Shown in pieces: positions 12,471-64,000 of a stretch of 64,000 bases of DNA. Source of the DNA: Laetmonice hystrix (taxonomy: Eukaryota); assembly GCA_965235115.1 (NCBI GenBank), contig OZ249436.1, positions 25,732,001-25,796,000 of the forward strand, written 5' to 3'. The notes under the pieces are model-generated. The model was not told the origin of the DNA. It made no database searches and saw only the letters and a program-made list of their open reading frames with translations. Position 1 is the stretch's first letter. Each line of letters opens with the position of its first letter. The translations under genes were made by a program, and so were the position numbers.

Positions 12471-12724
12471 TATCCCATCCCCTACGGAGGGGATGGGATT
12501 TAGAAATTGTGTGGTTTCGTCTTCTGTATTATTATTATCCCATCCCCTACGGAGGGGATGGGATTTAGAAATTGTGTGGTTTTGTCTTCTGTATTATTAT
12601 CCCATCCCCTACGGAGGGGATGGGATTTAGAAATTGTGTGGTTTCGTCTTCTGTATTATTATCCCATCCCCTACGGAGGGGATGGGATTTAGAAATTGTG
12701 TGGTTTCGTCTTCTGTATTATTAT
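12471..12724 (+). repeat. Four tandem Helentron 5' heads (62-65 bp, loop TACGGA)
   Basis: TATCCCATCCCCTACGGAGGGGATGGGATTTAGAAATTGTGTGGTTTCGTCTTCTG(TAT)n x4. Confidence 0.95.
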
Positions 12725-12740
12725 TTTTGGCGATGTAGTT

Positions 12741-24534: not shown

Positions 24535-25680
24535 TATCCCATCCCCTACGGAGGGGATGGGATTTAGAAATTGTGTGGTTTCGTCTTCTGTATTATTATT
24601 ATCCCATCCCCTATCCAGGGGATGGGATCTAGAAATTGTCTGGTTTCGGTTTCCGTATTATTATCCCATCCCCCCGGAGGGGATGGGATCTTGAAATTGT
24701 AGTTGTTACCAAGTTGTTAACATTTGTTAACACTATGTCATAACTCGGTCATTTTTCAAGATATCTCAACCAAACTTGGTACGCATCTTGACCATGACGA
24801 AGTCTGGTCAGACAATGAGTCATGACGTGACGTGACGTCAGCGTCATGACGTCAATTTTTTGGGATATTAGGGACCATTTTTAAAGTTCATATTGGGAAT
24901 TTATAATATCTATCATGGCATTTTGATCAGGCAAGGGTCTTGCCTAAGACTGACCCTTCGTTTGACCTTTGACCTTTGACCTTAGGGAGAACTGGGTCCT
25001 AGGTCGTAAATCGATTAAATCCCTACTTCTTCCTCAATTTTCATTAAAATTTTATGAAATTGCACAGGGATAGTCTCTGGGGAGAGATTCAAAGGAATCC
25101 GCTTTGCTACAATTGATTTGACCTATTTTCGCTGAGTCACGTGACCTGAAAGTTTTGAACAGTGGTCAACATAGCTATATATGGCTAAAACTCGAAGATG
25201 CTTGTCTATAAGAGCCATGTTTTTTATTGTACACAGATAGGAAGTGATATGCTCTTTCATTTGGCACCATAATATTTAAGGGTTTACGCCCTATTTACTG
25301 AACCACGTGACCTGCAAGTTTTAAAATTAGGTCATTTGGAAGATTCCTGGCTGTAACTCCTGAAAGATTTAAGACAGAGCCATAATTGTTCATGAACTGT
25401 ATAAAGGTGTATGTCCTCTTTAATTAGGTACCATAATTTTTTTCTTACATGACTTGTGACATCATCTATAACGTCATTTTTACGGCGCAATTGTGTAAAC
25501 ATGTATGTCTATCTCAGTCATTTTTTAATATATCTCAATGAAATTTGGCACACATCTTTATGACAAAGTCTAATCAGGCAGTGAGTCATGACATCATGTC
25601 ACGTCACGTCATGACCTCATGACATCAAATGTATTTTGAAACTTGAGGTCATTTTTAAAGCTCATGTTGATATTTAACAA
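24535..25680 (+). mobile_element. Three heads of different Helentron subfamilies, followed by a 3'-incomplete body
   Basis: Heads with loops TACGGA, TATCCA and CCGGA, followed by core sequence (TTTTTCAAGATATCTC..., TTGACCTTTGACCTT). Confidence 0.8.
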
Positions 25681-42438: not shown

Positions 42439-44161
42439 AAATAGGAAGTCATGGATGCTCTTTCAGTTGACGCCAAGTTTGATGACGTAGCATGACGTAT
42501 GACGTCATAATGAGGTCATCAATATTTTCTAGGGCCTATAACTCCTAAATTGTGGGAGATAAAGCCATGGTTACTATTGAACATGAATAGGAAGTCATAC
42601 ATGCTCTTTCATTTGACACCAACATTTATTAGGTAGCGTGACGTATGACGTCATAATGACGTCATTGGTATCTTCTATGGCCTATAAGTCGAAAACAGTG
42701 CAAGATAGGACCATAGTTACTATTAAACACGAATAGGAAGTCATACATGCTCTTTCAATTGAGGCCAAGTTTGATGACGTAGCGTGACGTATGACGTCAT
42801 AATGACGTCATCAGTACTTTCTAGGGCCTATAACTTTTAAACGGCGGGAGATAAAGCCACAGTTACTATTGAACACGAATAGGAAGTCATGCATGCTCTT
42901 TCAACTGAGGCCAAGTTTAATGACGTAGCATGACGTATGACGTCATAGTGGCGTTATCTATATTTTCTAAGGCCTATAACTCCTAAACGGTGGGAGATAA
43001 AGCCATGGTTACTATTGAACATGAATAGGAAGTCATACATGCTCTTTCATTTGACACCAACATTTATTAGGTAGCGTGACGTATGACGTCATAATGACGT
43101 CATTGGTATCTTCTATGGCCTATAAGTCGAAAACAGTGCAAGATAGCACCATAGTTACTATTGAACACGAATAGGAAGTCATACATGCTCTTTAATTGAG
43201 GCCAAGTTTGATGACGTAGCGTGACGTATGACGTCATAATGACGTCATCAATACTTTCTAGGGCCTTTAACTCCTAAACGGTTGGAGACAAACCCATGGT
43301 TACTATTGGACATGAATAGGAAGTCATACATGCTCTTTCAATTGACACCTACATTTACTAGGTAGCGTGACGTATGATGTAATAATGACGTCAGGAATCC
43401 TATCTCGGTCGTTTTTCAAGATATCTAAGTCAAACTTGATGGACATGTTGATAGTCACCAACTCTGTTTTGACAATGAGTCATGACGTCACATGACGTAA
43501 CGTCATGACGTACAATGACGTCATCAATATTTTGTAGGGCCTATAATTCCTAAACAGTTGGAGATAAAGCCATGGTTACTATTGAACATGAATAGGAAGT
43601 CATACCTGCTCTTTCAATTGACGCCATTATTTTTTTAGGTAGCGTGACGTATGATGTCATAATGACGTCATTGATATCTTATATGGCCTATAAGTCGAAA
43701 ACAGTGCAAGATAGGACCATAGTTACTATTGAACACGAATAGGAAGTCCTACATGTTCTTTCAATTGAGGCCAAGTTTGATGACGTAGCGTGACGTATGA
43801 CGTCATAATGACGTCATCAGTATTTTCTAGGGCCTCTAACTCTCAAACGGTGGGAGATAAAGCCACAGTTACTATTGAACACGAATAGGAAGTCATGCAT
43901 GCTCTTTCAACTGAGGCCAAGTTTAATGACGTAGCATGACGTATGATGTCATAGTGGCGTTATCTATATTTTCTAAGGCCTATAACTCCTAAACGGTGGG
44001 AGATAAAGCCATGGTTACTACTGAACATGAATAGGAAATCATACATGCTCTTTCAATGACACCAACATTTATAAACGTCATAATGACCTTACTAACTCAT
44101 AGGGACATGCCCCCCAAGGGATGGGATCCATCGTGGTTTTCACCACGACAGGTCTAGTTAT

Positions 44162-44424
44162 TATTATCCCATCCCCAATCCAGGGGATGGGATCTAGAAA
44201 TTGTGTGGTTTCGGTTTCCGTATTATTATTATCCCATCCCCAATCCAGGGGATGGGATCTAGAAATTGTGTGGTTTCGGTTTCCGTATTATTATTATTAT
44301 CCCATCCCCAATCCAGGGGATGGGATCTAGAAATTGTGTGGTTTCGGTTTCCGTATTATTATCCCATCCCCAATCCAGGGGATGGGATCTAGAAATTGTG
44401 TGGTTTCGGTTTCCGTATTATTAT
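44162..44424 (+). repeat. Four tandem Helentron 5' heads (loop AATCCA)
   Basis: TATCCCATCCCCAATCCAGGGGATGGGATCTAGAAATTGTGTGGTTTCGGTTTCCG(TAT)n x4, identical except for TAT number. Confidence 0.95.
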
Positions 44425-47400
44425 TTGCGTAGTAGTAGTAGTAAACAATTTGTTAACAGGGTCATTTAACAGGGCCATAACTCGGTCATTTTTCAAGATA
44501 TCTAAGTCAAACTTGATGGGTATGTTCACAGTCACCAACTCTGATGTGACAATGAGTCATGACGTCACATGACGTAACGTCATGACGTCATGACGTTATT
44601 CGTGTTGTGAATATTAGGACAGTTTTCAAGGTCATTATGGATAGTCTTGAGGAACTCATGACACTGACAAAATTGGGCAAGGACCTAATTCATATTTTGC
44701 AAAAATTTTGACCTTTAACCTTTGACATGTCTGAAATCTAGGTCAAAGGTCAGAAAATACTTAAAACCTATCTTCTTCCTCAATTTTCATTAAAATTTTA
44801 TGAAATTGCATAGGGATGGTCTCTAACGAGAGCATCAAAGGAATCCGCTTCGCTACCATTGATTTGACCTATATTCGCTGAGTCACGTGACTTCAAAATT
44901 TTGAACAGTGGTCAATTTGGCTATTTATGGCTATAACTCATAAACGGTGCCAGAAAGGGCCATAGTTACTATTGAACACGAATAGGAAGTCATGCATGCT
45001 CTTTCAGTTGACGCCAAGTTTGATGACGTAGCGTGACGTATGACGTCATAATGACGTCATTAGTATATTCTAGGGTCTATAACTCCTAAACGGTGGGAGA
45101 TAGAGCCATGGTTCCTATTGAACACAAATAGGAAGTCATGGATGCTCTTTCAGTTCACGCCAAGTTTGATGACGTAGCGTGACGTATGACGTCATAATGA
45201 CGTCATCAGTATTTTCTAGGGTCTATAACTCTTTAACGGTGGAAGATAGAGCCATGGTTACTATTGAACACAAATAGGAAATCATGGATGCTCTTTCAAT
45301 TGAGGCCAAGGTTAATGAGGCAGCTGACGTATGACGTCATAATGACGTCAGCAATATTTTCTAAGGCCTATAACTCCTAAACGGTGAGAGATAAAGCCAT
45401 GGTTACTATTGAACATGAATAGGAAGTCATACATGCTCTTTCAATTGACACCAACATTTATTAGGTAGCGTGACGTATGACGTCATAATGACGTCATTGG
45501 TATCTTCTATGGCCTATAAGTCGAAAACAGTGCAAGATAGCACCATAGGTACTATTGAACACGAATAGGAAGTATTACATGTTCTTTCAATTGAGGCCAA
45601 GTTTGATGACGTAGCGTGACGTATGACGTCAAAATGACGTCATCAGTATTTTCTAGGGCCTATAACTCTTAAACGGTGGGGGATAAAGCACACAGTTACT
45701 ATTGAACATGAATAGGAAGTCATGCATGCTCTTTCAACTGAGGCCAAGTTTAATGAAGTAGCATGACGTATGACATCATAGTGGCGTTATCTATATTTTC
45801 TAAGGCCTATAACTCCTAAACGGTGGGAGATAAAGCCATGGTTACTACTGAACATGAATAGGAAATCATACATGCTCTTTCAATTGACACCAACATTTAT
45901 AAACGTCATAATGACCTTACTAAGTCATAGGGACATGCCCCCCAAGGGATGGGATCCATCGTGGTTTTCACCACGACAGGTCTAGTTATTATTTGCGTAG
46001 TAGTAGTAGTAGTAAACAATGTTAACAGGGACAAAAGGGGTCATAACTCAGTTGTTTTTCAAGATATCTAAGTCAAACTTGAGTGACAAAATTGGGCAAG
46101 GACCTAATTCATATTTTGCAAATATTTTGACCTTTGACCTTTGACATGTCTGAAATCTAGGTCAAAGGTCAGAAAATACTTAAAACCTATCTTCTTCCTC
46201 AATTTTCATTAAAATTTTATGAAATTGCACAGGGATAATCTCGAAGGAGAGTTTCAAAGGAATCCGGTTCGATACAATTGATTTGGCCTATATTCGCTGA
46301 GTCACGTGACTTCAAAGTTTTGAACAGTGGTCAATTTGGCTATTCATGGCTATAACTCATAAACGGTGCCAGAAAGGGCCATAGTTACTATTGAACACTA
46401 ATAGGAAGTCATGCATGCTCTTTCAGTTGACGCCAAGTTTGATGACGTAGCGTGACGTATGACGTCATAATGACGTCATCACTATTTTCTAGGGCCTTTA
46501 ACTCCTAAACGGTGGGAGATATACCCATGGTTACTATTGGACATGAATAGGAAGTCATACATGCTCTTTCAATTGACACCTACATTTATTAGGTAGCGTG
46601 ACGTATGACGTAATAATGACGTCAGGAATCATATTTCCATCGTTTTTCAAGATATCTAAGTCAAACTTGGTGGACATGTTGATAGTCACCAACTCTGATT
46701 TGACAATGAGTCATGACGTCACATGACGTAACGTCATGACGTACAATGACGTCATCAATATTTTGTAGGACCTATAACTCCTAAACGGTTGGAGCTAAAG
46801 CCATGGTTACTATTGAACATGAATAGGAAGTCATACATGCTCTTTCAATTGACACCAACATTTATTAGGTAGCGTGACTAATGACGTCATAATGACGTCA
46901 TTGGTATGTTCTATGGCCTATAAGTCGAAAACAGTGCAAGATAGGACCATAGTTACTATTGAACACGAATAGGAAGTCATACATGCTCTTTCAATTGAGG
47001 CCAAGTTTGATGACGTAGCGTGACGTATGACGTCATAATGACGTCATCAATATTTTCTAGGGCCTTTAACTCCTAAACGGTGGGAGATATACCCATGGTT
47101 ACTATTGGACATGAATAGGAAGTCATACATGCTCTTTCAATTGACACCCACATTTTATTAGGTAGCGTGACGTATGACGTAATAATGACGTCAGGAGTCA
47201 TATCTCGGTCGTTTTTCCAGATATCAAAGTCAAACTTGGTGGACATGTTGATAGTCACCAACTCTGATTTGGCAATGAGTCATGACGTCACATGACGTAA
47301 CGTCATGACGTACAATGACGTCATCAATAGTTTCTAGGGCCTATAACTCCTAAACGGTGGGAGATAAAGCCATGGTTACTATTGAACATGAATAGGAAGT

Positions 47401-50400
47401 CATACATGCTCTTTCAATTGACACCAACATTTATTAGGTAGCGTGACGTATGACGTCATAATGACGCCACTGGTATCTTCTATGGCCTATAAGTCGAAAA
47501 CAGTGCAAGATAGGACCATAGTTACTATTGAACACGAATAGGAAGTCCTACATGCTCTTTCAATTGAGGCCAAGTTTGATGACGTAGCGTGACGTATGAC
47601 GTCATAATAACGTCACCGATATCTTCTAGGGCCTGTAACTCTTAAACGGTGGGAGATAAAGCCATGGTTACTATTGAACATGAATAGGAAGTCATGCATG
47701 CTCTTTCAATTGACACCAACATTTATAAGATAGCGTGACGTATGACGTCATAATGACGTCATTGGTGTCTTCGATGGCCTATTACTCTAGAACGGTGGGA
47801 AATAAAGCCATGGTTACTATTGAACACGAATAGGAAGTCATACATGCTTTTTCAATCGAGGCCAAGTTTGATGACATAGCGTGACGTATGACGTCATCAA
47901 TATTTTCTAAGACCTACAACTCCTAAACGGTGGGAGATAAAGCCATGGTTACTATTGAACCTGAATAGGAAGTCATGCATGCTCTTTCAATTGACACCAA
48001 CATTTATAAGATAGCGTGACGTATGACGTCATAATGACGTCATTGGTGTCTTCGATGGCCTATTACTCTAGAACGGTGGGAAATAAAGCCATGGTTACTA
48101 TTGAACACGAATAGGAAGTCATAGATGCTCTTTCAATTGACACTAACATTTATAAGATAGCGTGACGTATGACGTCATAATGACGTCATTGGTGTCTTCG
48201 ATGGCCTATAATTCAAGAACAGTGCAAGATAGGACCATAATTACTATTGAACACAAACAGGAAGTCATATGTCATTTTATTCGAAGCCAAGTTTGATGAC
48301 GTAATGTGACGTATGACGTAATGATGACACCATCAATATTTTCTAAGGCCTTGAACTCCTAAGTGGTGGGAGATAAAGCCATGGTTACTATTGAACATGA
48401 ATAGGAAATCATACATGCTCTTTCAATTGACACCAACATTTATAAACGTCATAATGACCTTACGAAGTCATAGGGACATGCCCCCCAAGGGATGGGATCC
48501 ATCGTGGTTTTCACCACGACAGGTCTAGTTTGCGTAGTAGTAGTAGTAGTAGTAGTAGTAGTAAACAATGTGTTAACAGGGGTCATAACTCGGTCATTTT
48601 TCAAGATATCTAAGTCAAACTTGGTGGGCATATTGCCAGTCACCAACTCTGATCTGACAATGAGTCATGACGTCACATGACGTAACGTCAGGACGTCATT
48701 CGTGTTGTGACTATTTGGACGACTTTCAAAGTCAATATGGATATTTTCCAGGAACTGATAACACTGTTAGAATTGGGCAAGGACCTAATTCATATTTTGG
48801 AAATATTTTGACCTTTGACCTTTGACATGTCATAAAACTAGGTCAAAGGTCAGAAAATGCTTAAATCCCTACTTCTTCCTCAATTTTCATTAAAATTTTA
48901 TGAAATTGCACAGGGATGGTGTGTAACGAGAGTTTCAAAGGATTCAGGTTAGCTACAGTTGATTTGACCTATATTCGCTGAGTCACGTGACTTCAAAGTT
49001 TTGAACAGTGGTCAATTTGGCTATCTATTGCTGTAACTCATAAACGGTGCCACAAAGGGCCATAGTTACTATTGAACACGAATAGGAAGTCATGCATGCT
49101 CTTTCAATTGAGGCCAAGTTTGATGACGTCGCGTGACGTACGACGTCAATATGACGTCATCAATATTTTCTAGGGCCTATAACTCCTAAACGGTGGGAGA
49201 TAAAGCCATGTTTACTATTGGACATGAATAGGAAGTCATACATGCTCTTTCAATTGACACCAACATTTATTAGGTAGCGTGACGTATGACGTCATAATGA
49301 CGTCATTGGTATCTTCTATGGCCTATAAGTCGAAAACAGTGCAAGATAGGACCATAGTTACAATTGAACACGTATAGGAAGTCATACATGCTCTTTCAAT
49401 TGAAGCCAAGTTTGATGACGTAGCGTGACGTATGACGTCATAATGACATCATCAATATTTTCTAGGGACTATAACTCTTAAACGGTGGGAGATAGAGCCA
49501 TGGTTACTATTGAACACAAATAGGAAGTCATGGATGCTCTTTCAACTGAGGCCAAGTTTAGTGACGTAGCATGACGTATGACGTCATAATGACGTCATTT
49601 GTATCTTCTATGGCCTATAACTCAAGAACGGTGCAAGATAGGACCATAGTTACTATATAACACAAATAGGAAGTCATATCCCTTTTATTTGAAGCCAAGT
49701 TTGATGACGTAGTGTGACGTATGACGTCATAATTACGTCATCAATATTTTCTAAGGCCTATAACTCCTAAACGGTGGCAGATAAAACCATGGTTACTATT
49801 ACACATGAATATGAAGTCATACATGCTCTTTCAAATGACACCAACATTTATTAGGTAGCGTGACGTATGACGTCATAATGACGTCATTTGTATCTTCTAT
49901 GGCCTATAACTCGAGAACGGTACAAGATAGGGTCATAGTTACCATTGGATACGAATAGGAAGTCATGCGTGCTCTTTTGATTGACACCAAGTTAAAGGAT
50001 GTAGCGTGACGTATGACGTCATAATGACGTCATCAATATTTTCTAAGGCCTATAACTCCTAAACAGTGGGAGATAAAGGCATGGTTACTATTGAACATGA
50101 ATAGGAAGTCATATCTGCACTTTCAAATGACACCATTATTTATTAGGTAGCGTGACGTATGACGTCATAATTACGTCATTGTATCTTCTACGGCCTATAA
50201 CTCAAGAACGGTGGGAGATAGAGCCATGGTTACTATTAAACATGAATAGCCTAGGAAGTCATAGATGCTCTTTTAATTGACACCAACATTTATAAGATAG
50301 CGTGATGTATGACGTCATAATGACGTCATTGGTGTCTTCTATGGCCTATAATTCAAGAACGGTGCAAGATAGGACCATAATTACTTTTGAACACAAACAC

Positions 50401-53260
50401 GAAGTCATATGCCATTTTATTCGAAGCCAAGTTTGATGACGTAGTGTGTCGTATGACGTCATAATGACATCATCAATATTTTCTAGGGCCTTCAACTCCT
50501 AACTGGTGGGAGATAAAACCATGGTTACTATTGAACATGAATAGGAAATCATACATGCTCTTTCAATTGACACCAACATTTATAAACGTCATAATGACCT
50601 TATTAAGTCATAGGGACATGCCCCCCAAGGGATAGGATCCATCGTGGTTTTATCCACGACAGGTCTAGTTATTTGCGTAGTAGTAGTAGTAAACAATTTG
50701 TTAACATGGTCATTTAACAGGGCCATAACTTGGTCATTTTTCAAGATATCTAAGTCAAACTTGGTGGGTATGTTCACAGTCACCAACTCTGATGGGACAA
50801 TGAGTCATGACATCACATGACGTAACGTCATGACGTCATGACGTTATTCGTGTTGCGAATATTAGGACGGTTTTCAAGGTCATTATGGATACTCTTGAGG
50901 AACTCATGACACTGACAAAATTGGGCAAGGACCTAATTCATATTTTGCAAAAATTTTGACCTTTGACCTTTGACATGTCTGAAATCTAGGTCAAAAGTCA
51001 GAAAATACTTAAAACCTATCTTCTTCCTCAATTTTCATTAAAATTTTATGAAATTGCATAGGGATGGTCTCTAACGAGAGCTTCAAAGGAATCCGCTTCG
51101 CTACCATTGATTTGACCTATATTCGCGGAGTCACGTGACTTAAAAGTTTTGAACAGTGGTCAATTTGGCTATCTATTGCTATAACTCATAAACGGTGCCA
51201 GAAATGGCCATAGTTACTATTGAACACGAATAGGAAGTCATGCATGCTCTTTCAGTTGACGCCAAGTTTGATGACGTAGCGTGACGTATGACGTCATAAT
51301 GACGTCATCAGTATTTTCTAGGGTCTATAACTCCTAAACGGTGGGAGATAGAGCCATGGTTACTATTGAACACAAATAGGAAGTCATGGATGCTCTTTCA
51401 ATTGAGCCCAAGTTTATTGACGTATCGTGACGTATGACGTCATAATGACGTCATTGGTATCTTCTATGGCCTATAACTCAAGAGCAGTGCAAGATAGGAC
51501 CATAGTTACTATTGAACACGAATAGGAAGTCATGCATGCTCTTTCAGTTGACGCCAAGTTTCATGACGTAGCGTGACGTATGACGTCATAATGACGTCAT
51601 CAATGTTTTCCAAGACCTATAACTAAATGGTGGGAGATAAAGCCATGGTTACTATTTAACACGAATAGGAAGTCATGCATGCTCTTTCAGTTGACGCCAA
51701 GTTTCATGACGTAGCGTGACGTATGACGTCATAATGACGTCATTGGTATCTTCTATGGCCTATAACTTAAGAATGGTGGAACATAGTACCATAGTTACTA
51801 TTGAACACGTATAGGAACTCATATATGCCTTTTTGATTGAAGCCAAGTTTGATGACGTAGTGTGACGTATGACGTCATAATGACGTCATTGGTATTTTCT
51901 ATGGCCTATAACTCAAAAACGGTGCAAGATGGGGCCATAGTTACTATTGAACACGAATAGAAAGTCATAGATGGTCTTTCACTGGACACCAAGATTCATG
52001 ACGTAGCATGACGTATGACGTCATAATGACGTTATTGCCATGTCATAGGCCCTATAGCTTGTAAACGGTGGGATATGGAGCCATGGTTGCTATTGAACAT
52101 GAATAGGAAGTCATACATGCTCTTTCGATTGACATCAACATTTATCAGGTTGCGTGACGTATCGTATGACGTCATAATGACGTAATTGGTATTTCTATGG
52201 CCTATAACTCGAGAACGGTGCAAGATAGGACCATAGTTACTAGTGAGCACAAATAGGAAGTCATATATGCCCTTTCAATCGAAGTCAAGTTTGATGACCT
52301 AGTGTGACGTATGACGTCATAATTAAGTCGTCAATATTTTCTAAGGCCTATGACTCCTAAACGGTGGGAGATAAAGCCATGATTACTATTGAACGCGAAT
52401 AGGAAGTCGTACATGCTTTTTCAAATGACACCATTATTTATTAGGTAGCATGACGTATGACGTCATAATGACGTCATCAATATGTTCTAAGGTCTATAAC
52501 TCCTAAACGGTCGGAGATAGCGCCATGGTTACTATTGAACATGAATAGGAAGTCATAGATGCTCTTTTAATTGACACCAACATTTATAACATAGCGTGAC
52601 ATATGACGTCATAATGACGTCATTGGTGTCTTCTATGGCCTCTAATTCAAGAACAGTGCAAGGTAGAACCATAATTACTGTTGAACACAAAAAGGAAGTC
52701 ATATGCCATTTTATTCAAAGCCAAGTTTGATGACGCAGTGTGACGTATGACGTAATGATGACATCATCAATATTTTCTAAGGCCTTTAACTCCTAACTGG
52801 TGGGAGATAAAGCCATGGTTACTATTGAACACGAATAGGAAGTCATACATGCTCCATCAATTGACACCAACATTTATAAACGTGATAATGACCTTACTAA
52901 GTCATAGGGACATGTCCCCCAAGGGATGGGATCCATCGTGGTTTTATCCACGACAGGTCTAGTTTGCGTAGTAGTAGTAGTAAACAATTTGTTAACAGGG
53001 TCATTTAACAGGGCCATAACTCGGTCATTTTTCAAGATATCTAAGTCAAACTTGGTGGGTATGTTCACAGTCACCAACTCTGATGTGGCAATGAGTCATG
53101 ACATCACATGACGTATCTTCTATGGCCTATAACTCAAAAACGGTGGAAGATGGGGCCATAGTTACTATTGAACACGAATAGGAAGTCATAGATGGTCTTT
53201 CACTGGACACCAAGATTCATGACGTAGCATGACGTATGACGTCATAAACGGTGCCAGTAA

Positions 53261-53407
53261 TATGGTTAAAACATCTGTTTATTATCACCTCACTCGTGTA
53301 CACACCACGTCCATGCGTCCCCCGCTGTAGTCTCTTCTAGCGCCCTCTGGCGTCCCGGCTGGGCCGCCCCCATGGCCATCTGGTGGGGGACTAGAGAACT
53401 ATTAACA
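53261..53407 (-). repeat. 3' LTR of the copia element (outer end eroded by a few bp)
   Basis: Direct repeat of 58162-58312; begins TATGGTT instead of TGTTAATGGTT on the plus strand. Confidence 0.9.
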
Positions 53408-53631
53408 CTAAATAAAATGTCTTTTTTTTTTTTCTTTTCTTTCTTTCTTTTTTTTTTTTTTTTTTTTTTGTTGTTGCAAGGTAGTGAAGTATTAAGATAG
53501 GAAATAAATGTCTAGTGGAAGGAAAATTGGATTTAAAAAAAAAACAACTAGTACTACCGTCAAGAGAATATGGAATTGGACGGTAAGAGAATAAGGCGAT
53601 CACTGGGTTAGACTGCCCTCCTGCCTGGGGA

Positions 53632-55014
53632 TTATTCTGCCCCATTTAAGTAGTGTTCCTTCAGCAAAGGAAAGTTCCCGGTCTGCAGAACCACAAGGAG
53701 GCGATGCCCTGGTGCTCCCTTCTTGGTCATACAGTCAGCCAACTGGTCCTGCCCAGGACACCAGTACACGGTATTAACTTGTCCTGTTTGAAGAGCTTCT
53801 CTCAAAGCACTGATGTCCAGTCGCAAGCGTTTGTCATCCACCATCCTGGTGGAATGAAGTGCCTCAACTAAGCTTCTGTTGTCGACGTAGGCGTGAAGTG
53901 GAAGGGACCTATTTGGAAGCCCTAAGAGCTCTTCTAGCATGCCCCGTAGAAAGATGCCATCCTCCACTCCCTCCAGCAGACTAAGGGCCTCAGCTGCAAG
54001 GGTAGATCTCACGACGCGTTTGATCTTGTTAGCTTGCCATGCCAGAGGACAACACTTGCCCTGTTGTCCGAGAAGCAGAATCACGTGGGCCCCCATACTG
54101 CTGACACCATCACACAAATTGGCATGAGCTGCGTCTGAGAAAATCACTATCTTCCAATTGTCAGGATGACCGATGTCTGGAAAGATAAGTTTGGCTTCCC
54201 CCTCTTTCAATCGACCAATGGCTTTTTGTGTTCTTATGAGGTCTGCAACCGTCCCTTTTCTGAACTTGGTGCTCAGTTCTACCATCTCAAAGGCCATGTC
54301 TGGTCTGGATCCCTGTACGACCCAATTGATGCGTCCTACCAAGCCTCTCAAAAAAGTGAGTTCTCTGGCAGTAAGGTTCTCCTGCTTCTGAGCAGCCCGC
54401 TGGGGAGTAATGGGTTCTGTCTCCATATCCTCTACATACTGCGTTTGGTCGAGGATGAGACCTTCCTGAACTTGTCTCACGTGGAATCCAACATACCTGA
54501 AGTAACCGTGCTCTAACTTTCCTGCCAGGAAATGTCTCCTGAGATTTTCCATCACTTCAGTATCGAAAGCCTGTTCTCCGGCATGGAGAAAGTCATCAAT
54601 GTGGCTGGCGACCATGCCTTTCAGACGTCCCTCCTTTCTCCAAAAAAAGAAGGCAGTATCAAGTGAGGATTGCTGGCAGCTCAGGTCTTCCAGTACCTGC
54701 ACGACACTCAGGAAAAACTGTCTGGCTGCGTCGTTCAGTCCATACAGACATCTCTTCAATTTCCAAAGAGTTCCTTCTGGTGCCTCAGCTTCTCTTGGTG
54801 GAATTAGAAAAACTTCTCTGTCGAGCCCCCTTCCCTGCAGAAAGGCAGACTTTATGTCGGTAGTCTTCACATGCCATCCTCGACTGGCAGCAATAGCCAG
54901 GAACACTCTCATAGCGCTTCTGGAGATCGTTGGTGAATCTGTTCTCATATCTTCTTCTTCCTCAAAGCCTCTGGCTACCAGCCTAGCTCGGACTTCCGTT
55001 CCTTTGTTCCACAT
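53632..55014 (-). CDS. pol: Copia reverse transcriptase (N-terminally incomplete) and RNase H
   Basis: RARLVARGFEE, DIKSAFLQG, LYGLNDA, HIDDF, FSDAAHANL, STLAAE, DNRSL, KRLR and QLADCMTK. The H(V/I)DD and KRLR motifs are characteristic of the GalEa clade. Confidence 0.9.
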   Translation of the reverse strand: MWNKGTEVRARLVARGFEEEEDMRTDSPTISRSAMRVFLAIAASRGWHVKTTDIKSAFLQGRGLDREVFLIPPREAEAPEGTLWKLKRCLYGLNDAARQFFLSVVQVLEDLSCQQSSLDTAFFFWRKEGRLKGMVASHIDDFLHAGEQAFDTEVMENLRRHFLAGKLEHGYFRYVGFHVRQVQEGLILDQTQYVEDMETEPITPQRAAQKQENLTARELTFLRGLVGRINWVVQGSRPDMAFEMVELSTKFRKGTVADLIRTQKAIGRLKEGEAKLIFPDIGHPDNWKIVIFSDAAHANLCDGVSSMGAHVILLLGQQGKCCPLAWQANKIKRVVRSTLAAEALSLLEGVEDGIFLRGMLEELLGLPNRSLPLHAYVDNRSLVEALHSTRMVDDKRLRLDISALREALQTGQVNTVYWCPGQDQLADCMTKKGAPGHRLLVVLQTGNFPLLKEHYLNGAE

Positions 55015-57847
55015 TGACGTTGTAAGAGTTTTTGTTTTTACCCGTCACTTTCCCTGCTCTGCTCAGTATGGTTGCTTTGGTCCAAGGATCAGCTGCACTG
55101 GTTTTAAACTGAATCATTTCATCGCGGTTCATATGTATGCGCCCATCGGCTTCACTGGCACCCGCGACGCGCACGTCCCGCTCAGGTAAGCCGCCTTGTT
55201 GTTGGCCAATGGCCTCTGTATCTTCCTCGTCACCATGCAAGTCAAGGTCTTCAGCCAGGTCTTGTCTGTGACTCATCAAGTTATCAACATTTCCAGTAGT
55301 TCCAGCAATCCTTTCTGATCCTCCCCTTTTGGAGTCACCCGGCCCTTTCTCTTCAACTGTGTTCTCCCTTTCTACTTCTTCATCCTGCGGCGTTTCCCCA
55401 GTCTTAGCCGTAGAGAATTCCTTTCCAGCCTTCAGCAGACGATTGGGGGAAACTCGAAGAATCACACCTCCATGGCGCACAAAGATGACTTTTCCATCCT
55501 GAAGCAGAACCTTTCCGGGCCCTAGCCATCTGTCGTGTCCTTCTCGTTTGTAGAAGACCCTGTCTCCAATTTGGAAGTCTTGCTGGGATGCTCTGATTTT
55601 GCACCGCAAGGCTCTTCTGATCCTCTCGTCTGCCTCAGATTCGATGAAAGCCCTCCGTGCAGCATGGAGAGCATTCAAATGCTTGGCCAACACTTCACTT
55701 CGGGTCTTGCCTCCTAGTGCTGGTGGAGTGTCTGTCATTATGTTGGGCAGATTAGGGTTTTTTCCAAAGACTAGTTGGTAGCTACTGTACCCATGCCACA
55801 TTTGTAAGGAGTTCCTGGCCATATCAGCCCAACACAGCAGCACTTCAATAGGGGTCTGTGGACACTGTTCTTCCAGTTTGAGGAGCATGAGGTCAGTCAC
55901 GGCGTGAATTCTTTCACAGAGTCCATTTTGAAAGGGACTCGGAGCAGCTGTGGTGTAGACCTGTACGTTGAGTATACTGGCTACCTCTCTCGTTTCATCT
56001 GAGCTAAACTCTCCACCATTATCGGTCAAAATGGCCTCCATGACTCCAAACGCCGCACCTCCAACCCAGTGAAGCAGGATCTGATCGATGATTTCACTTG
56101 GTTTCTTTCTGTTAACGAAAACTGAAACGGTAAGCCTAGACCACATATCTACAAGATGAAGAATCCACTTGTTTTTCCACTTCTTCAGGTCCATGGCTAC
56201 TTTCTCATTGAAGGTTGTTGCCATGGGCATCGCTACTGCTGGACGGGGTGGTGTCCGGGCAAACACCTTGCAGAGATCACAACTCTCATAGATCTCTCTC
56301 AGCTCTTCACTGAAGTCTTCTCTCCACACCCCGGCATCCTTCATCAGAGCTGTCAGTTTACTCTCTGGGGGATGGGCAAATTGCCTGTGTAGCTTGAGTA
56401 GGGCATTGTGCCTCTCCTTCTTGTCTAACTCATGAAGTTTCACTGCAAAGACTGTTTGTGCTGTCAATGTCTCTGTCTTATCGATGGGCAGGCAGTAGTG
56501 ACCGGATGAAGTATGGTTGAGCATCACCTTCTTTCCCAGGATTTCAGCTGTGTCTCTCTCCAGGTCGAGCTTGACCTTGGCCTCCTTCATGGCTTTTAAG
56601 GAAAGGAGGAGTGGGATGTCTGAGTTTACCACATCTGTCTTGATAGTGACTTCCTCTCCAACCAACATCGCAGGTAGATCAACAGAGGCTGAAGATTGGA
56701 GAATTTCCCCACCGCCGAATTTAAACACTTTAACTCCTGGCTTGTAGACGACTTTTGACCTGTCTGTCTTCTCCAGTGATTCCAGGTAAGCATCCAGCCA
56801 TCTCTGCCCACATACTGTACTAGAACAGGCGCAATCAAAGACAACACAGTTATGGGCTTCCTTTCCTAGCTGCAACATATCCTGCTTGTTATAGCCAGTG
56901 AAGAGGACCACTTTCTCATCATGATGTCTGCCGTCTTGCTGCTTTTCACCTTTATACTGCTCTTCATCTGTTATACTGACTTTGGCCAAGTTCTCCCAAC
57001 TGTCGGGGCAATCGGCCATCAGGTGCCGATATGACCCACAGGAAATGCATGTCAAGGGTTTACCATCGGGGCCAGCTGGATTCACTCGTCTCTTTCCTCC
57101 TGTGCTTGCTCCCCGCCAGCTTCTCTGTCCCACCCGTGTGCCTCTGGCGCCCCGTCCACCACCTCTGGTGCCGTATGGTGCAGAGAATCGCCTTTTGTGC
57201 ACGTACCCTGCCGCTGCCAACACCTCCTCATTAGCCGCCAGGAAGGCTGGTTCCAGTTTGATGGCTGAACCACTATGCTCCCCATTGTTTGGGGGATGTC
57301 CTTTGAATTTCTTGAGTGACTTCTTAGCCTGGTCATAAAGTGTGTCTCTCAAAGCATAATTCATTCCTGTCAGCACTAGTTGCTTCTCTTCCCATGTGAT
57401 GTTGGCTCGGCGGAGCAACTGGAAAGCTAACACCTCACTAGGTAGCATTATTCCTTTTTTGAGAATCTTGTTGTATTTCTGGTCAAATTTCGCAATAAAC
57501 TCTGTTACAGCTTGACCAGCCTGTCTCTTGCAATCCTCAAATTCTTCATATTTCTCTAAACAGTCTTCCAAATCATCCTTCCCTAACTTCTGATCCATAA
57601 AGGCGATCAACGTTTCCAACCCATCCTCCTGCTTCAACTCACCGAGTTCAAGTTCATCAAAAACTTTTTCACGGACGCCAGATTCACCATCTTCGGGCAG
57701 TGACAATGCTATTGCTATGCCTTGCTTTTCTTTCGGCACGTCTGTCACCTCACGCCAAGCTAAGAGTTCTTGTTTGTATCTTTCGTAAGATTTGCATTTC
57801 AAATAGTCAGGAGGATTAATTCTCATTGCCATGGTGTTGGTGTTCAC
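54983..57847 (-). CDS. gag-pol: Copia Gag-protease-integrase polyprotein (954 aa)
   Basis: Zinc knuckle CISCGSYRHLMADC; protease-like VFDCACSSTVCG; integrase HRQFAH...CDLC, VAMDLK, TDNGGEF and QNGLCER. Confidence 0.92.
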   Translation of the reverse strand: MNTNTMAMRINPPDYLKCKSYERYKQELLAWREVTDVPKEKQGIAIALSLPEDGESGVREKVFDELELGELKQEDGLETLIAFMDQKLGKDDLEDCLEKYEEFEDCKRQAGQAVTEFIAKFDQKYNKILKKGIMLPSEVLAFQLLRRANITWEEKQLVLTGMNYALRDTLYDQAKKSLKKFKGHPPNNGEHSGSAIKLEPAFLAANEEVLAAAGYVHKRRFSAPYGTRGGGRGARGTRVGQRSWRGASTGGKRRVNPAGPDGKPLTCISCGSYRHLMADCPDSWENLAKVSITDEEQYKGEKQQDGRHHDEKVVLFTGYNKQDMLQLGKEAHNCVVFDCACSSTVCGQRWLDAYLESLEKTDRSKVVYKPGVKVFKFGGGEILQSSASVDLPAMLVGEEVTIKTDVVNSDIPLLLSLKAMKEAKVKLDLERDTAEILGKKVMLNHTSSGHYCLPIDKTETLTAQTVFAVKLHELDKKERHNALLKLHRQFAHPPESKLTALMKDAGVWREDFSEELREIYESCDLCKVFARTPPRPAVAMPMATTFNEKVAMDLKKWKNKWILHLVDMWSRLTVSVFVNRKKPSEIIDQILLHWVGGAAFGVMEAILTDNGGEFSSDETREVASILNVQVYTTAAPSPFQNGLCERIHAVTDLMLLKLEEQCPQTPIEVLLCWADMARNSLQMWHGYSSYQLVFGKNPNLPNIMTDTPPALGGKTRSEVLAKHLNALHAARRAFIESEADERIRRALRCKIRASQQDFQIGDRVFYKREGHDRWLGPGKVLLQDGKVIFVRHGGVILRVSPNRLLKAGKEFSTAKTGETPQDEEVERENTVEEKGPGDSKRGGSERIAGTTGNVDNLMSHRQDLAEDLDLHGDEEDTEAIGQQQGGLPERDVRVAGASEADGRIHMNRDEMIQFKTSAADPWTKATILSRAGKVTGKNKNSYNVNVEQRNGSPS

Positions 57848-58147
57848 AGGCTATTGTCTAGAGCTCAAAAACACAATAAGGCCTAATATCACTGGCTTAT
57901 AAGGCACACCTAGTGTCACCACACTGGTTATAGTACGCTGGCTCAGTTTACACGAACAGACAATCCTGAAGTGGAATTGTGGTTACGCAGCTCACCTCAG
58001 TGTTGCGGACACGCGCTTCCCTGAATCGCCCTGTATTATCGCTCACCGTTGTCCACTCGCTTTAACACCGGCTTTCGCTCTTCTCCACACCCACGCTTGT
58101 TCACTGAGCACGGATGTTGTTCCCTGAAGGTCCCTGGCCGGAACCAC

Positions 58148-58159
58148 GCTCTGCTACCA
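58148..58159 (-). promoter_or_regulatory. Primer-binding site TGGTAGCAGAGC (initiator tRNA-Met type)
   Basis: Lies 2 nt inside the 5' LTR end; complementary to ...CUCUGCUACCA. Confidence 0.9.
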
Positions 58160-58161
58160 TT

Positions 58162-58312
58162 TGTTAATGGTTAAAACATCCGTTTATTATCACCTCACTC
58201 GTGTACACACCACGTCCATGCGTCCCCCGCTGTAGTCTCTTCTAGCGCCCTCTGGCGTCCCGGCTGGGCCGCCCCCATGGCCATCTGGTGGGGGACTAGA
58301 GAACTAGTAACA
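58162..58312 (-). repeat. 5' LTR of the copia element
   Basis: TGTTA...TAACA inverted ends; direct repeat of 53261-53407. Confidence 0.92.
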
Positions 58313-61300
58313 GTAAGGGCCATAGTTAATATTGAACACGAATAGAAAGTCATACATGCTCTTTCAATTGAGGCCAAGTTTGATGATGTAGCGTGACGTA
58401 TGATGTCATAATCACGTCATCAATGTTTTCTAGGGCCTATATCTCCTTAACGGTGGAAAATAGAGCCATGGTTACTATTGAACATGAATAGGATGTCATA
58501 CATGCTCTTTCAATTGACACCAACATTTTTTAGGTAGCGTGACGTATGACGTCATAATGACGTCATTGGTATCTTCTATGGCCTATAAGTCAAAAACAGT
58601 GCAAGATAGGACCATAGTTACTATTGAACACGAATAGGAAGTCCTACATGCTCTTTCAATTGAGGCCAGGTTTGATGACGTAGGGTGACGTATGACGTCA
58701 TAATGACGTCAACAATATTTTCTGGGGCCTATAACTCTTAAACGGTGGGAGATAAAGCCATAGTTACTATTGAACACGAATAGAAAGTCATGCATGCTCT
58801 TTCAACTGAGGCCAAGTTCGATGACGTAGCGTGACGTATGACGTCATAATGACGTCATCAATATTTTCTAGGGCCTATAACTCCTAAACGGTGGGAGATA
58901 TACCCATGGTTACTATTGGACATGAATAGGAAGTCATACATGCTCTTTCAATTGACACCTACATTTTATTAGGTAGCGTGACGTATGACGTAATAATGAC
59001 GTCAGGAGTCATATCTCGGTCGTTTTTCAAGATATCAAAGTCAAACTTGGTGGACATGTTGATAGTCACCAACTCTGATTTGACAATGAGTCATGATGTC
59101 ACATGACGTAACGTCATGACGTACAATGACGTCATCAATATTTTGTAGGGCCTATAACTCCTAAACGGTGGGAGATAAAGCCATGGTTACTATTCAACAT
59201 GAATAGGAAGTCATACGTGCTCTTTCAATTGACACCAACATTTATTAGGTAGCGTGACGTATGACGTCATAATGACGTCATTGGTATCTTCTATGGCCTA
59301 TAAGTCGAAAACAGTGCAAGATAGGACCATAGTTACTATTGAACACGTATAGGAAGTCATACATGCTCTTTCAATTGAAGCCAAGTTTGCTGACGTAGCG
59401 TGACGTATGACGTCATAATGACATCATCAATATTTTCAAGAGACTACAACTCTTAAACGGTGGGAGATAAAGCCATAGTTACTATTGAACACGAATAGGA
59501 AGTCATGCATGCTCTTTCAGTTGACGCCAAGTTTGATGAAGTAGCGTGACCTATGACGTCACAATGACGTCATCAGTAATTTCTAGGCTCTATAAGTCCT
59601 AAACGGTGGGAGATAGAGCCATGGTTACTATTGAGCACAAATAGGAAGTCATGGATGCTCTTTCAACTGAGGCCAACTTTAATGATGTAGCATGACGTAT
59701 GACGTCATAGTGACGTCATCAATATTTTCTAAGGCCTATAACTCCTAAACAGTGCGAGATAAAGGCATGGTTACTATTGAACATGAATAGGAAGTCATAT
59801 ATACACTTTCAAATGACACCATTATTTATTAGGTAGCATGACGTATGACGTCATAATTACGTCATTGTATCTTCTACGGCCTATCACTCAAGAACGGTGG
59901 GAGATAGAGCCATGGTTACTATTGAACATGAATAGGAAGTCATAGATGCTCTTTTAATTGACACCAACATTCATAAGATAGCGTGACGTATGACGTCATA
60001 ATGACGTCATTGGTGTCTTCTATGGCCGATAATTCAAGAACGGTGCAAGATAGGACCATAATTACTATTGAACACAAACAGTAAGTCATATGCCATTTTA
60101 TTTGAAGCCAAGTTTGATGATGTAGTGTAACGTATGACGTAATAATGACATCATCAATATTTTCTAATGCCTTTAACTCCTAACTGGTGGGAGATAAAGC
60201 ATGGTTACGATTGAACACGAATAGGAAGTTATACATGCTCTTTCAATTGACACCAACATTTATAAACGTGATAATGACCTTACTACGTCATAGGGACATG
60301 CCCCCCAAGGGATGGGATCCATCGTGGTTTTATCCACGACAGGTCTAGTTATCCCATCCCCAATCCAGGGGATGGGATCTAGAAATTGTGTGGTTTCGGT
60401 TTCCGTATTATTATTTGCGTAGTAGTAGTAGTAAACAATTTGTTAACAGGGTCATTTAACAGGGCTATAACTCGGTCATTTTTCAAGATATCTAAGTCAA
60501 ACTTGGTGGGTATGTTCACAGTCACCAACTCTGATGTGGCAATGAGTCATGACATCACATGACGTAACGTCATCACGTCATGACGTTATTCGTGTTGTGA
60601 ATATTAGGACTGTTTTCAAGGTCATTATGGATACTCTTGAGGAACTCATGACACTGACAAAATTGGGCAAGGACCTAATTCATATTTTGCAAAAATTTTG
60701 ACCTTTGACCTTTGACATGTCTGAAAACTAGGTCAAAGGTCAGAAAATACTTAAAACCTATCTTCTTCCTCAATTTTCATTAAAATTTTATGAAATTGCA
60801 TAGGGATGGTCTCTAACGAGAGCTTCAAAGGAATCCGCTTCGCTACCATTGATTTGACCTATATTCGCGGAGTCACGTGACTTAAAAGTTTTGAACAGTG
60901 GTCAATTTGGCTATCTATTGCTATAACTCATAAACGGTACCAGAAATGGCCATAGTTACTATTGAACACGAATAGGAAGTCATGCATGCTCTTTCAGTTG
61001 ACGCCAAGTTTGATGACGTAGCGTGACGTATGACGTCATAATGACGTCATCAGTATTTTCTAGGGTCTATAACTCCTAAACGGTGGGAGATAGAGCCATG
61101 GTTACTATTGAACACAAATAGGAAGTCATAGATGCTCTTTCAATTGAGCCCAAGTTTATTGACGTATCGTGACGTATGACGTCATAATGACGTCATTGGT
61201 ATCTTCTATGGCCTATAACTCAAGAGCAGTGCAAGATAGGACCATAGTTACTATTGAACACGAATAGGAAGTCATGCATGCTCTTTCAGTTGACGCCAAG

Positions 61301-64000
61301 TTTCATGACGTAGCGTGACGTATGACGTCATAATGACGTCATCAATGTTTTCCAAGACCTATAACTCCTAAATGGTGGGAGATAAAGCCATGGTTACTAT
61401 TGAACACGAATAGGAAGTCATGCATGCTCTTTCAGTTGACGCCAAGTTTCATGACGAAGCGTGACGTATGACGTCATAATGACGTCATTGGTATATTCTA
61501 TGGCCTATAACTTAAGAATGGTGGAAGATAGTACCATAGTTACTATTGAACACGTATAGGAACTCATATATGCCTTTTTGATTGAAGCCAAGTTTGATGA
61601 CGTAGTGTGACGTATGACGTCATAATGACGTCATTGGTATCTTCTATTGCCTATAACTCAAAAACGGTGCAAGATGGGGCCATAGTTACTATTGAACACG
61701 AATAGGAAGTCATAGATGGTCTTTCACTGGACACCAAGATTCATGACGTAGCATGACGTATGACGTCATAATGACGTTATTGCCATGTCATAGGCCCTAT
61801 AGCTTGTAAACGGTGGGATATGGAGCCATGGTTACTATTGAACATGAATAGGAAGTCATACATGCTCTTTCGATTGACATCAACATTTATCAGGTTGCGT
61901 GACGTATCGTATGACGTCATAATGACGTAATTGGTATTTCTATGGCCTATAACTCGAGAACGGTGCAAGATAGGACCATAGTTACTAGTGAGCACAAATA
62001 GGAAGTCATATATGCCCTTTCAATCGAAGTCAAGTTTGATGACCTAGTGTGACGTATGACGTCATAATTACGTCGTCAATATTTTCTAAGGCCTATGACT
62101 CCTAAACGGTGGGAGATAAAGCCATGATTACTATTGAACGCGAATAGGAAGTCGTACATGCTTTTTCAAATGACACCATTATTTATTCATTATTTTGACC
62201 TTTGACCTTTGATGTCAGAGGATGGCCAGATAATTGGCCGTGGGCAACGCGCCAATGACGGCCCGCCCGCCAGTGACCATTGTCCATCCTTATATACTGG
62301 GACGGGGAAAACCGTGAAGGAGGGGATATATAGGGGCACCAATAGAGAGTCTAGGGAAGAAGGAGGAGAGAAAGGATACTATAGTTGACGATGAGGAACA
62401 TATAGACATTGACCGCATGATACATGTATATTAGATGGGTCGAAGAAGACATGTGTGCCTCAGGAATTATTGTTTCAAAACTCAAGAAACGACTCTACTG
62501 ACTTATTCTCCCAACTACCAAAAACAAATGTGAACTGAGTATAGCTGTAGGAAAGAAAAATAGTTATAGGAAAGAAAAAATTGATTGCCAGGCGGTAGTC
62601 TTGTGCTAGCACCGAAGGATCCCCCGGCGCCGCCCGGCGTGGGCACATCCCTCTATATATCCCCACTCTTTCTTTTTGAAGAATTGACAAGAATTATTGT
62701 TAGGCTAACTCAAAATACAGCCACGGGCCCAGGGTTTTCGGCAGAGGGGTCTCGGAAATCGAAATGAAAATGAAAATTGATGTTGATAGATCACCAATAT
62801 TATTGAAACAGTTGTAACTCTGAAAGGGGGCCAGATGAGGACTACGTTTGACGGAAGGGCACGGCCTACATAGTATCGTTACTATTGAAGCCATAATAGG
62901 AATATGTTCTTTCAAAAGATACCAAAATCTATGATGTAGGGTGACGTGTTACGTGACAATGACGCAATTGATAGATGACCAATAATAATTATTGAGGTCA
63001 TATAGGAAGTAATAATATATGCTCCTTCGACTCACGGGCCTATCGATGACATGGAGGTAGTCTAACATGATAATGGATCTATGATTTTCGTTGCCAGGGG
63101 ATGGGATACAAGATGTTGGCCCTAGCCACATCGGCGCTAGTTATTTGCGTAGTAGTAGTAGTAGTAAACAATGTTAACAGGGACAATAAGGGTCATAACT
63201 CAGTTGTTTTTCAAGATATCTAAGTCAAACTTGGTGGGTATGTTCACAGTCACCAACTCTGATGTGACAATGAGTCATGACGTCACATGACGTAACGTCA
63301 GGACGTCATGACGCAAAGGTCAGAAAATACTTAAAACCTATCTTCTTCCTCAATTTTCATTAAAATTTTATGAAATTGCATAGGGATGTTCTCTAACGAG
63401 AGCTTCAAAGGAATCCGCTTTGCTACAATTGATTTGACCTATATTTGCTGAGTCACGTGACCTGAAAGATTTGAACAGTGGTCAATATAGATATATATGG
63501 CTATAACTAAGAAACGGTGCCAGATACGGCCATAGTTACTATTGAGCACGAATAGGAAGTCATGCATGCTCTTTCAGTTGACGCCAAGTTTCATGACGTA
63601 GCGTGACGTATGACGTCATAATGACGTCATCAATGTTTTCCAAGACCTATAACTCCTAAATGATGGGAGATACAGCCATGGTTACTATTGAACACGAATA
63701 GAAAGCCATGCATGCTCTTTCAGTTGACGCCAAGTTTCATGACGTAGCGTGACGTATGGCGTTTGCGTAGTAGATGTAGTAGTAGTTGTAAACAATTTGT
63801 TAACATTTGTTAACAGGGGTCATAACTCGGTCATTTTTAAAGATATCTAAGTCATACTTGGTGGGCATGTTGCCAGTCACCAACTCTGATCTGACAATGA
63901 GTCATGACGTAACATGACGTAACGTCATGACGTCATGACGTTATTCGTATCGTGATTATTAGGACGGTTTTCAAAGTCAATATGGATACTTTCCAGGAAC

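Follow-up and report, generated by a model that had tools for sequence, protein, structure and literature searches.

How does a run of four identical 5' ends of one transposable element come to stand ahead of a series of bodies that have no 5' ends of their own? The question arises in a 64-kb stretch of the Laetmonice hystrix genome, hereafter the window (G000:C1:25732001-25796000; coordinates given without a contig are positions within it), the genome comprising 627 Mb in 35 contigs. A preliminary description had proposed that each new copy of the element inserted itself into the (TAT)n linker just behind the 5' end (the head) of a resident copy, without target-site duplication, so that heads and bodies pair like nested brackets, last in, first out (LIFO). 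Our analysis of the window and of related loci across the genome supports LIFO self-insertion into this linker, with junctions that preserve the order of insertion.

The four heads of the stack are identical over 56 nt, with TATCCC starts at 44165, 44230, 44298 and 44360, and tails (CTAGT) end at 45986, 48529, 50669 and 52963, followed by 2, 0, 1 and 0 TAT and then TTGCG. The counts of the preliminary description were all confirmed, namely 4, 5 and 3 TAT after heads 1 to 3, an intact head 4 with 3 TAT and TTGCG, headless bodies preceded by 2, 0 and 1 TAT behind the first three tails, and an intact copy at 60350; its arithmetic was also correct, LIFO pairing giving sums of 5, 5 and 5 and first-in-first-out (FIFO) pairing 6, 5 and 4. 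It had missed a further tail that ends at 44158, three TAT before head 1 (one of them head 1's own start), and the whole stack therefore sits in the linker of an outer copy. The locus is arranged as follows.

42440..44158, + strand: 3' part of an earlier copy, with 146-bp repeats, subterminal inverted repeat (subTIR) GGGATGGGAT at 44118-44127, stem-loop at 44131-44148 and CTAGT
44159..44164, + strand: two TAT remaining from the outer host linker
44165..44229, + strand: head 1 (5' subTIR and hairpin, 56 nt) and 3 linker TAT, broken by head 2
44230..44297, + strand: head 2 and 4 linker TAT
44298..44359, + strand: head 3 and 2 linker TAT
44360..45986, + strand: innermost intact Helentron, with head 4, a 3-TAT linker at 44416-44424, (GTA)n, core, 146-bp repeats and tail
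45987..48529, + strand: 2 TAT, then body 2; pairs by LIFO with head 3, giving a host linker of 4 TAT
48530..50669, + strand: body 3; pairs by LIFO with head 2, giving a host linker of 4 TAT
50670..52963, + strand: 1 TAT, then body 4; pairs by LIFO with head 1, giving a host linker of 4 TAT
52964..60349, + strand: body 5, split by a long terminal repeat (LTR) element; its formal LIFO partner is the head at 24600, and its head is unassigned

The copy at 42440..44158 has had its 5' part cut off by another element, and its last 450 nt are 97.1% identical to body 1; the innermost copy shares 98.2% identity with an intact C2 copy that has an identical head. Taken alone, the window pattern is weak, being one of six permutations, and drawing from independent family-B marginals gives three equal sums about 2.3% of the time.

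Judged by their sequence, the stacked elements are non-autonomous Helentrons (HLE2) of about 1.5-3 kb, running from TATCCC to CTAGT. From 5' to 3' they consist of a head with the subTIR ATCCCATCCC and an 11-bp hairpin, the (TAT)n and (GTA)n runs, a core region, the 146-bp repeats, the subTIR in reverse, a stem-loop of 7 bp and the CTAGT end, the (TAT)n linker beginning about 56 nt inside the 5' end. The 5' subTIR, ATCCCATCCC(C), begins 1 nt from the 5' end and the 3' subTIR, GGGATGGGAT, lies about 31-40 nt from the 3' end; their exact match of 10 bp is slightly below the published 11-15 bp, and we count it as a subTIR pair of the HINE kind. In DNA folding the 5' inverted repeat pairs with the subTIR as a hairpin with an 11-bp stem (-13.7 kcal/mol for head 1, DNA parameters), and the 3' stem is 7 bp. 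The (GTA)n microsatellite and the central 146-bp tandem arrays also correspond to HINE/DINE-1 elements. Canonical Helitrons (HLE1) have a 5' TC, an A^T site and no terminal inverted repeats, whereas here the 5' end is TATCCC, the site is T^T and subTIRs are present; the CTAG-like end is the sole HLE1-like trait. Linker length is subfamily-specific, with 2 TAT in family A and 6-9 in one family-B type. Short-head variants without a TAT linker are the innermost stack members at loci L131 and L120 and at 24662 in the window; since they carry no landing site, they would end a nest.

Genome-wide, 479 junctions join head, linker and head in two subfamily groups, and 112 join tail, (TAT)n and TTGCG, with 0 of either in the control. 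Nesting order was examined in a parsed set of 66 regions that span 896 kb, the window among them, and contain 328 heads and 245 tails, a non-random sample picked for stacks or tail-body junctions; at one of its 40 stack loci, L112, no head was parsed. The unit of the test was an outer head, an inner head, a body, a tail and a second body, of which there were 55 simple cases. In 16 of the 19 mixed pairs, whose heads are at least 4 edits apart, the body behind the tail was closer to the type of the outer head (p=0.004), and two of the three exceptions fell within one family. For pairs with any head difference (n=36), the outer head was matched in 27 and the inner in 8, and the head expected for the body lay at a mean distance of 1.6 from the outer head, versus 6.1 when shuffled.

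The TAT counts carry the same record. Among 40 cases with a close intact relative at other loci, the left and right TAT, minus one, equalled the linker length of intact copies of that body type in 29 (18.3 when shuffled, p=5e-5); with identical junctions removed the agreement was 25/36. The Spearman coefficient was 0.77. The sums range from 3 to 10 over the 55 simple pairs and are subfamily-specific, which rules out the constant sum of 5 that had been taken as the rule; the three fives of the window correspond to three 4-TAT hosts. Exact examples are found at L141 and L146, where two families are nested between unique flanks with exact sums. At C11:25.44 Mb an outer family-B head meets its diagnostic body 11 kb on, past four family-A tails, with TAT halves of 3+1, and at C2:39.79 Mb seven heads are followed by bodies that close in the order C, C, B. 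Nested arrays of 70-85 kb in one orientation, consisting mostly of these elements, lie at G000:C2:39829500-39914000 and 39720000-39791000.

The ends of the element and its target were read from heads outside other copies. A single TAT precedes CCC in 27 of 53 heads with a non-element left flank, so that the element starts with TATCCC and not, as previously supposed, with TATTAT; a start with two TAT fits 5/40 sums, with zero TAT 7/40 and with three TAT 3/40, against 29/40 for one. This terminus, shorter by 3 nt, had been needed as an exception for the family-A stack at 12471; it is in fact the rule. After six of the 53 heads were dropped (unrelated hairpins, a truncated head or altered tails), the left flank ended in TNAT at 42 of 47 unique sites and in TNRT at 46, and the right flank started with T behind all 22 tails lacking a parsed head or body. 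The insertion site is thus TNAT^T (TNRT^T), between T and T, without target duplication: the T^T position proposed earlier stands, and the idea that any TT would serve does not. Intact linkers act as empty sites here, and the sum minus one restores the linker in those 29 cases.

Within a linker preceded by G or C, the TNAT^T motif is present after the second and later TATs and absent after the first, and the first TAT was the insertion point in 0 of 54 simple nests. The first permitted site was hit in 21 of 41 hosts having at least 3 TAT (13 expected, p=0.005); the permitted site nearest the hairpin is favoured. Both the tail (TAGT^T) and the left junction recreate the target motif, which accounts for the common CTAGT-TATCCC joins, including those at 60350 and in the stack at 12471. 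Inserts on the opposite strand were not found in linkers, as the motif predicts. General targeting of (TAT)n microsatellites was rejected: the genome contains 8,919 (TAT)3T runs (of the first 100 listed, about 10 are at element heads), yet only 2 of the 47 unique insertions follow TATTAT. A minor second site is seen in two heads inside a (GTA)n run at TAGT^T (L059 about 7800; G000:C2:24795625).

We next consider how often the linker is used. Exact-pattern matching yielded 2,891 heads genome-wide, and the percentages derived from it are lower bounds. Of these heads, 1,023 have TGGTTT 10-40 nt upstream (94 of the first 100 listed were linkers by eye) and 705 stand directly behind CTAGT (98 of the first 100 listed were clean junctions), so that about 960 (~33%) lie in another copy's linker and about 690 (~24%) right behind a tail. 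At the TNATT density of the fetched DNA, 14.8 per kb, three sites per linker predict 0.09%, and the observed share is about 350-fold higher. Bodies hold about 33 TNATT each, roughly tenfold more than linkers, and at most 2 of 328 heads lie inside one. Linker use is far beyond what the motif alone explains.

Several observations weigh against tidy nesting. The sum misses the intact linker length in 11 of 40 cases, and the junction counts given above are inflated by re-mobilised composites. When the loci were parsed as brackets the order held, but the grammar was often broken: among 19 loci closed by unique flanks, 7 were balanced, 11 had surplus tails and 1 had surplus heads. In 16 deeper stacks LIFO did better than FIFO in 6, worse in 2 and equally well in 8. 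Inner copies did not prove significantly younger than the outer (20 vs 14 of 35, p=0.22). No allele without an inner copy was seen. Five public sequencing runs contain part of the window, four of them from one sample, and for the two-level nest at L141 four runs gave short contigs only, with no flank-to-flank joint among the joints listed (38 others were unlisted), a result that speaks neither for nor against the nest.

The window itself contributes to these objections. The closest intact copies of body 2 (98.9%, 4 TAT) and of body 3 (96.4%, 3 TAT) carry a TATCCA head variant, while all four window heads have AATCCA, as do the closest intact copies of body 4 (98.7%, 3 TAT). Consequently the match of head and body subfamilies expected under LIFO, which holds across loci, fails for window bodies 2 and 3. 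Moreover, two of the three window sums are one TAT above their intact relatives (hosts 4, 4, 4 versus relatives 4, 3, 3). The window stack was probably homogenised or rearranged, and its three fives are probably in part luck.

Part of the imbalance probably stems from composites. A one-head, two-body unit with a rare CTAGC junction stands alone at C1:11.50 Mb and recurs as a nest host at C1:70.28 Mb, 97.5% identical over 5.3 kb; therefore read-through composites move. Surplus bodies likely come from such re-mobilised composites or from loss of heads between the 62-68-nt tandem units.

Taken together, we consider it very probable that non-autonomous Helentrons insert at TNAT^T, preferentially split the linkers of resident copies, and form nests that are later reshaped. 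Termini, motif, nesting order, enrichment and composite mobility (one composite, two loci) enter this account as observations; the steps that link them would be as follows. An incoming copy, probably a circle joined CTAGT-TATCCC as in other Helitrons (PMC5148889, to the extent of its accessible text), would be transferred at TNAT^T. The CTAGT-TATCCC junctions would be compatible with such circular intermediates, and equally with tandem insertion. Splitting the resident linker would let heads accumulate on the left and bodies close in reverse order on the right, the left and right TAT totalling the host linker plus one, at a landing site common to the subfamilies. Further copies would land at the regenerated site before a head or behind a tail, giving head-to-tail junctions, and transposition from an inner head reading through its tail would mobilise one-head, two-body composites. 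Adjacent near-identical heads were probably lost or homogenised. The excess near heads would be best accounted for by transposase held at the resident 5' hairpin and subTIR, or by single-stranded DNA exposed there.

A stronger version holds that the transposase homes to resident copies, bound at the hairpin and subTIR, and delivers circles of any subfamily to a TNAT array kept for this purpose 60 nt downstream. We put this forward tentatively, as a little less probable than its opposite. If true, the linker would be a selected, self-regenerating safe harbour in which each insertion brings another, the opposite of target immunity, and the rule would also account for other Helitron2 elements with multiple termini, FoHeli1 for example.

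Other explanations must be weighed against the splitting of resident linkers. Tethering would be superfluous if sequence preference were combined with survival bias, harmless self-insertions being kept and composites multiplied later. Selection against insertions elsewhere is to be expected, the linker is itself a run of the target motif, and one composite is indeed present at two loci. However, TNATT sites in bodies are equally harmless and far commoner, and are hardly ever occupied, so that survival bias alone fails; it is also opposed by the rare use of non-element (TAT)n runs, by the distinctness of 133 of 175 head-head junction types (which makes their independence partial), and by the skew toward the site nearest the hairpin. 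We regard it as unlikely. Alternatively, head stacks and body arrays could have separate origins, in slippage, in unequal crossing-over or in truncated circles amplified by rolling-circle replication, as suggested for plant Helitron arrays with many 5' ends. This would suit the 45 of 175 adjacent head pairs that are identical, all four window heads included, the 10 of 102 adjacent body pairs at least 99% alike, the commonness of unbalanced loci, and the single-base mismatch of window heads 2 and 3 with their bodies. Yet 130 of the adjacent heads differ, 68 of them by at least 4 edits, 82 of the adjacent bodies are less than 97% alike, the next body follows the outer head in most mixed cases, and the TAT halves total the host linker. 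As the main cause separate formation is contradicted, and we hold it very improbable; it may contribute secondarily. Room for an assembly artefact is left by the many repeats in the region and by public contigs too fragmented to decide any locus. The junctions, however, number in the hundreds, lie on many contigs, combine subfamilies and obey a strict motif with sums exact to the base, which is unlike collapse or chimerism and makes an artefact scarcely credible.

The non-autonomous copies would be moved by partners in the same genome that combine Rep, helicase and endonuclease. The Helitron Rep domain has 125 matches genome-wide, most of them in frames of >1,500 codons. One partner on C2 has a 2,974-codon open reading frame with Rep (PF14214), Pif1 helicase (PF05970) and endonuclease (PF03372), and its last 39 nt are the same as those of the window tails, so that the 3' end is shared. 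In the LIFO parse a family-B linker opens the body that contains this frame, two copies of another subfamily are nested in that body, and the partner's 5' end would be the start of that body, as partial 82-86% matches to a second locus suggest. A degenerate head 7.9 kb before the Rep domain was rejected as the 5' end, since similarity continues past it in three other copies and it is thus internal. A degenerate head inside the autonomous Helentron, about 3.2 kb ahead of its long frame (G000:C2:39766082, - strand; L075) and in a stretch that three other copies share, is possibly a fossil self-insertion.

Comparison with known systems is limited to the accessible text of the papers cited. HINE/DINE-1 elements (Thomas et al. 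2014, PMC4067079; oyster Cg_HINE, PMC7492417) use T-rich or TT targets with a variable terminal T. The elements described here share with them the 5' subTIR with inverted repeat, the microsatellite, the central tandem repeats, the 3' subTIR with stem-loop, TT insertion without target-site duplication and a RepHel partner bearing an endonuclease, and differ from those descriptions in the TNAT^T site, the CTAGT end, the fixed internal landing site and the closed nests. FoHeli1/2, Helitron2 elements of Fusarium oxysporum (Chellapan et al. 2016, PMC5148889; PMC13342296), also have a TNAT target and stacks of 2-5 short 5' termini of 31-85 nt, for which self-insertion followed by re-mobilisation was proposed, backed by one nested copy. 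Their stacks have a single 3' end, as far as these accounts go, whereas here both halves of the nests are present, at one short linker, in about a third of copies and across subfamilies.

In maize, elements that combine a single 5' end with several 3' ends were explained by nested intermediates and transposition from an inner 5' end (Dong et al. 2011, PMC3288121), a pattern like that of our loci with surplus bodies; those elements are canonical Helitron1, for which the accessible text shows no defined internal target, in contrast to the fixed linker site. Rolling-circle tandem Helitron arrays with many 5' ends (Xiong et al. 2016) and head-to-tail dimers arising through target preference (McGurk and Barbash 2018), both covered in the review PMC12628747, resemble our 5' ends in a row and head-to-tail joins, but their order, as described there, is tandem, while here it is nested, with mixed-subfamily heads and bodies closing in reverse. 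The accessible parts of PMC11417382 and bioRxiv 2024.11.21.624632 describe TT targets and tandem arrays only. A full-text literature search, with subscription papers and supplements largely outside it, found no publication that describes closed nests across subfamilies at a fixed landing site inside the element. The preliminary description had thought the behaviour undescribed; self-insertion as such is already in print as a hypothesis for Fusarium Helitron2 and maize, and the new aspect is the direct, two-sided nests at a fixed, built-in site.

Helentron target choice and stacked Helitron termini have so far rested on few inferred cases, and about a thousand junctions now give the exact termini, the target motif and the order in which more than ten head variants inserted. 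The result yields a simple prediction for a transposition assay, and the long Rep-bearing frames in the genome put a transposase at hand. Arrays of satellite-bearing elements can grow from inside to tens of kb, and annotation tools would cut such nests wrongly.

Three further features of the window involve related copies.

60350..62190, + strand: copy head-to-tail behind body 5 (CTAGT-TATCCC), 3-TAT linker, 3' part interrupted
24535..24701, + strand: mixed stack of three heads (one of family A, one variant of family B and one of the short-head type) at the opening of the larger nest
12471..12730, + strand: family-A four-head stack behind a tail (CTAGT-TATCCC), fitting a one-TAT terminus

As the mixed stack predicts, a family-B tail is succeeded by a family-A body at G000:C1:25806788, 10.8 kb beyond the end of the window. 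Over 1.1 kb, the short-head copy at 24662 is 98.3% identical to a complete relative. Body 5, for which no matching head had been found, has a best intact match of just 85%; it either hosted the entire stack or was carried along by read-through. We considered whether body 5 and the tail at 44158 belong with the stack at 24535 and did not adopt this, since 42440-44158 matches the short-head relative at only 85-89% and body 5 is without a close intact match.

Body 5 contains a Copia-type LTR retrotransposon at about 53261-58312 (- strand), with LTRs of about 150 nt that are 98% alike and two frames, of 955 and 470 codons, in which integrase and RVT_2 are matched. A 3-kb element at about 39448-42440 has long terminal inverted repeats that start with CACCG and 68-bp subterminal repeats, and its right end adjoins the truncated Helentron body at 42440. 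A solo 440-nt copy of another subfamily lies at 27361-27803 (- strand) in a TTAT^T site, and 31 tandem copies of a 24-bp unit, strongly skewed in GC, occupy 14537-15275 within a family-A body region.

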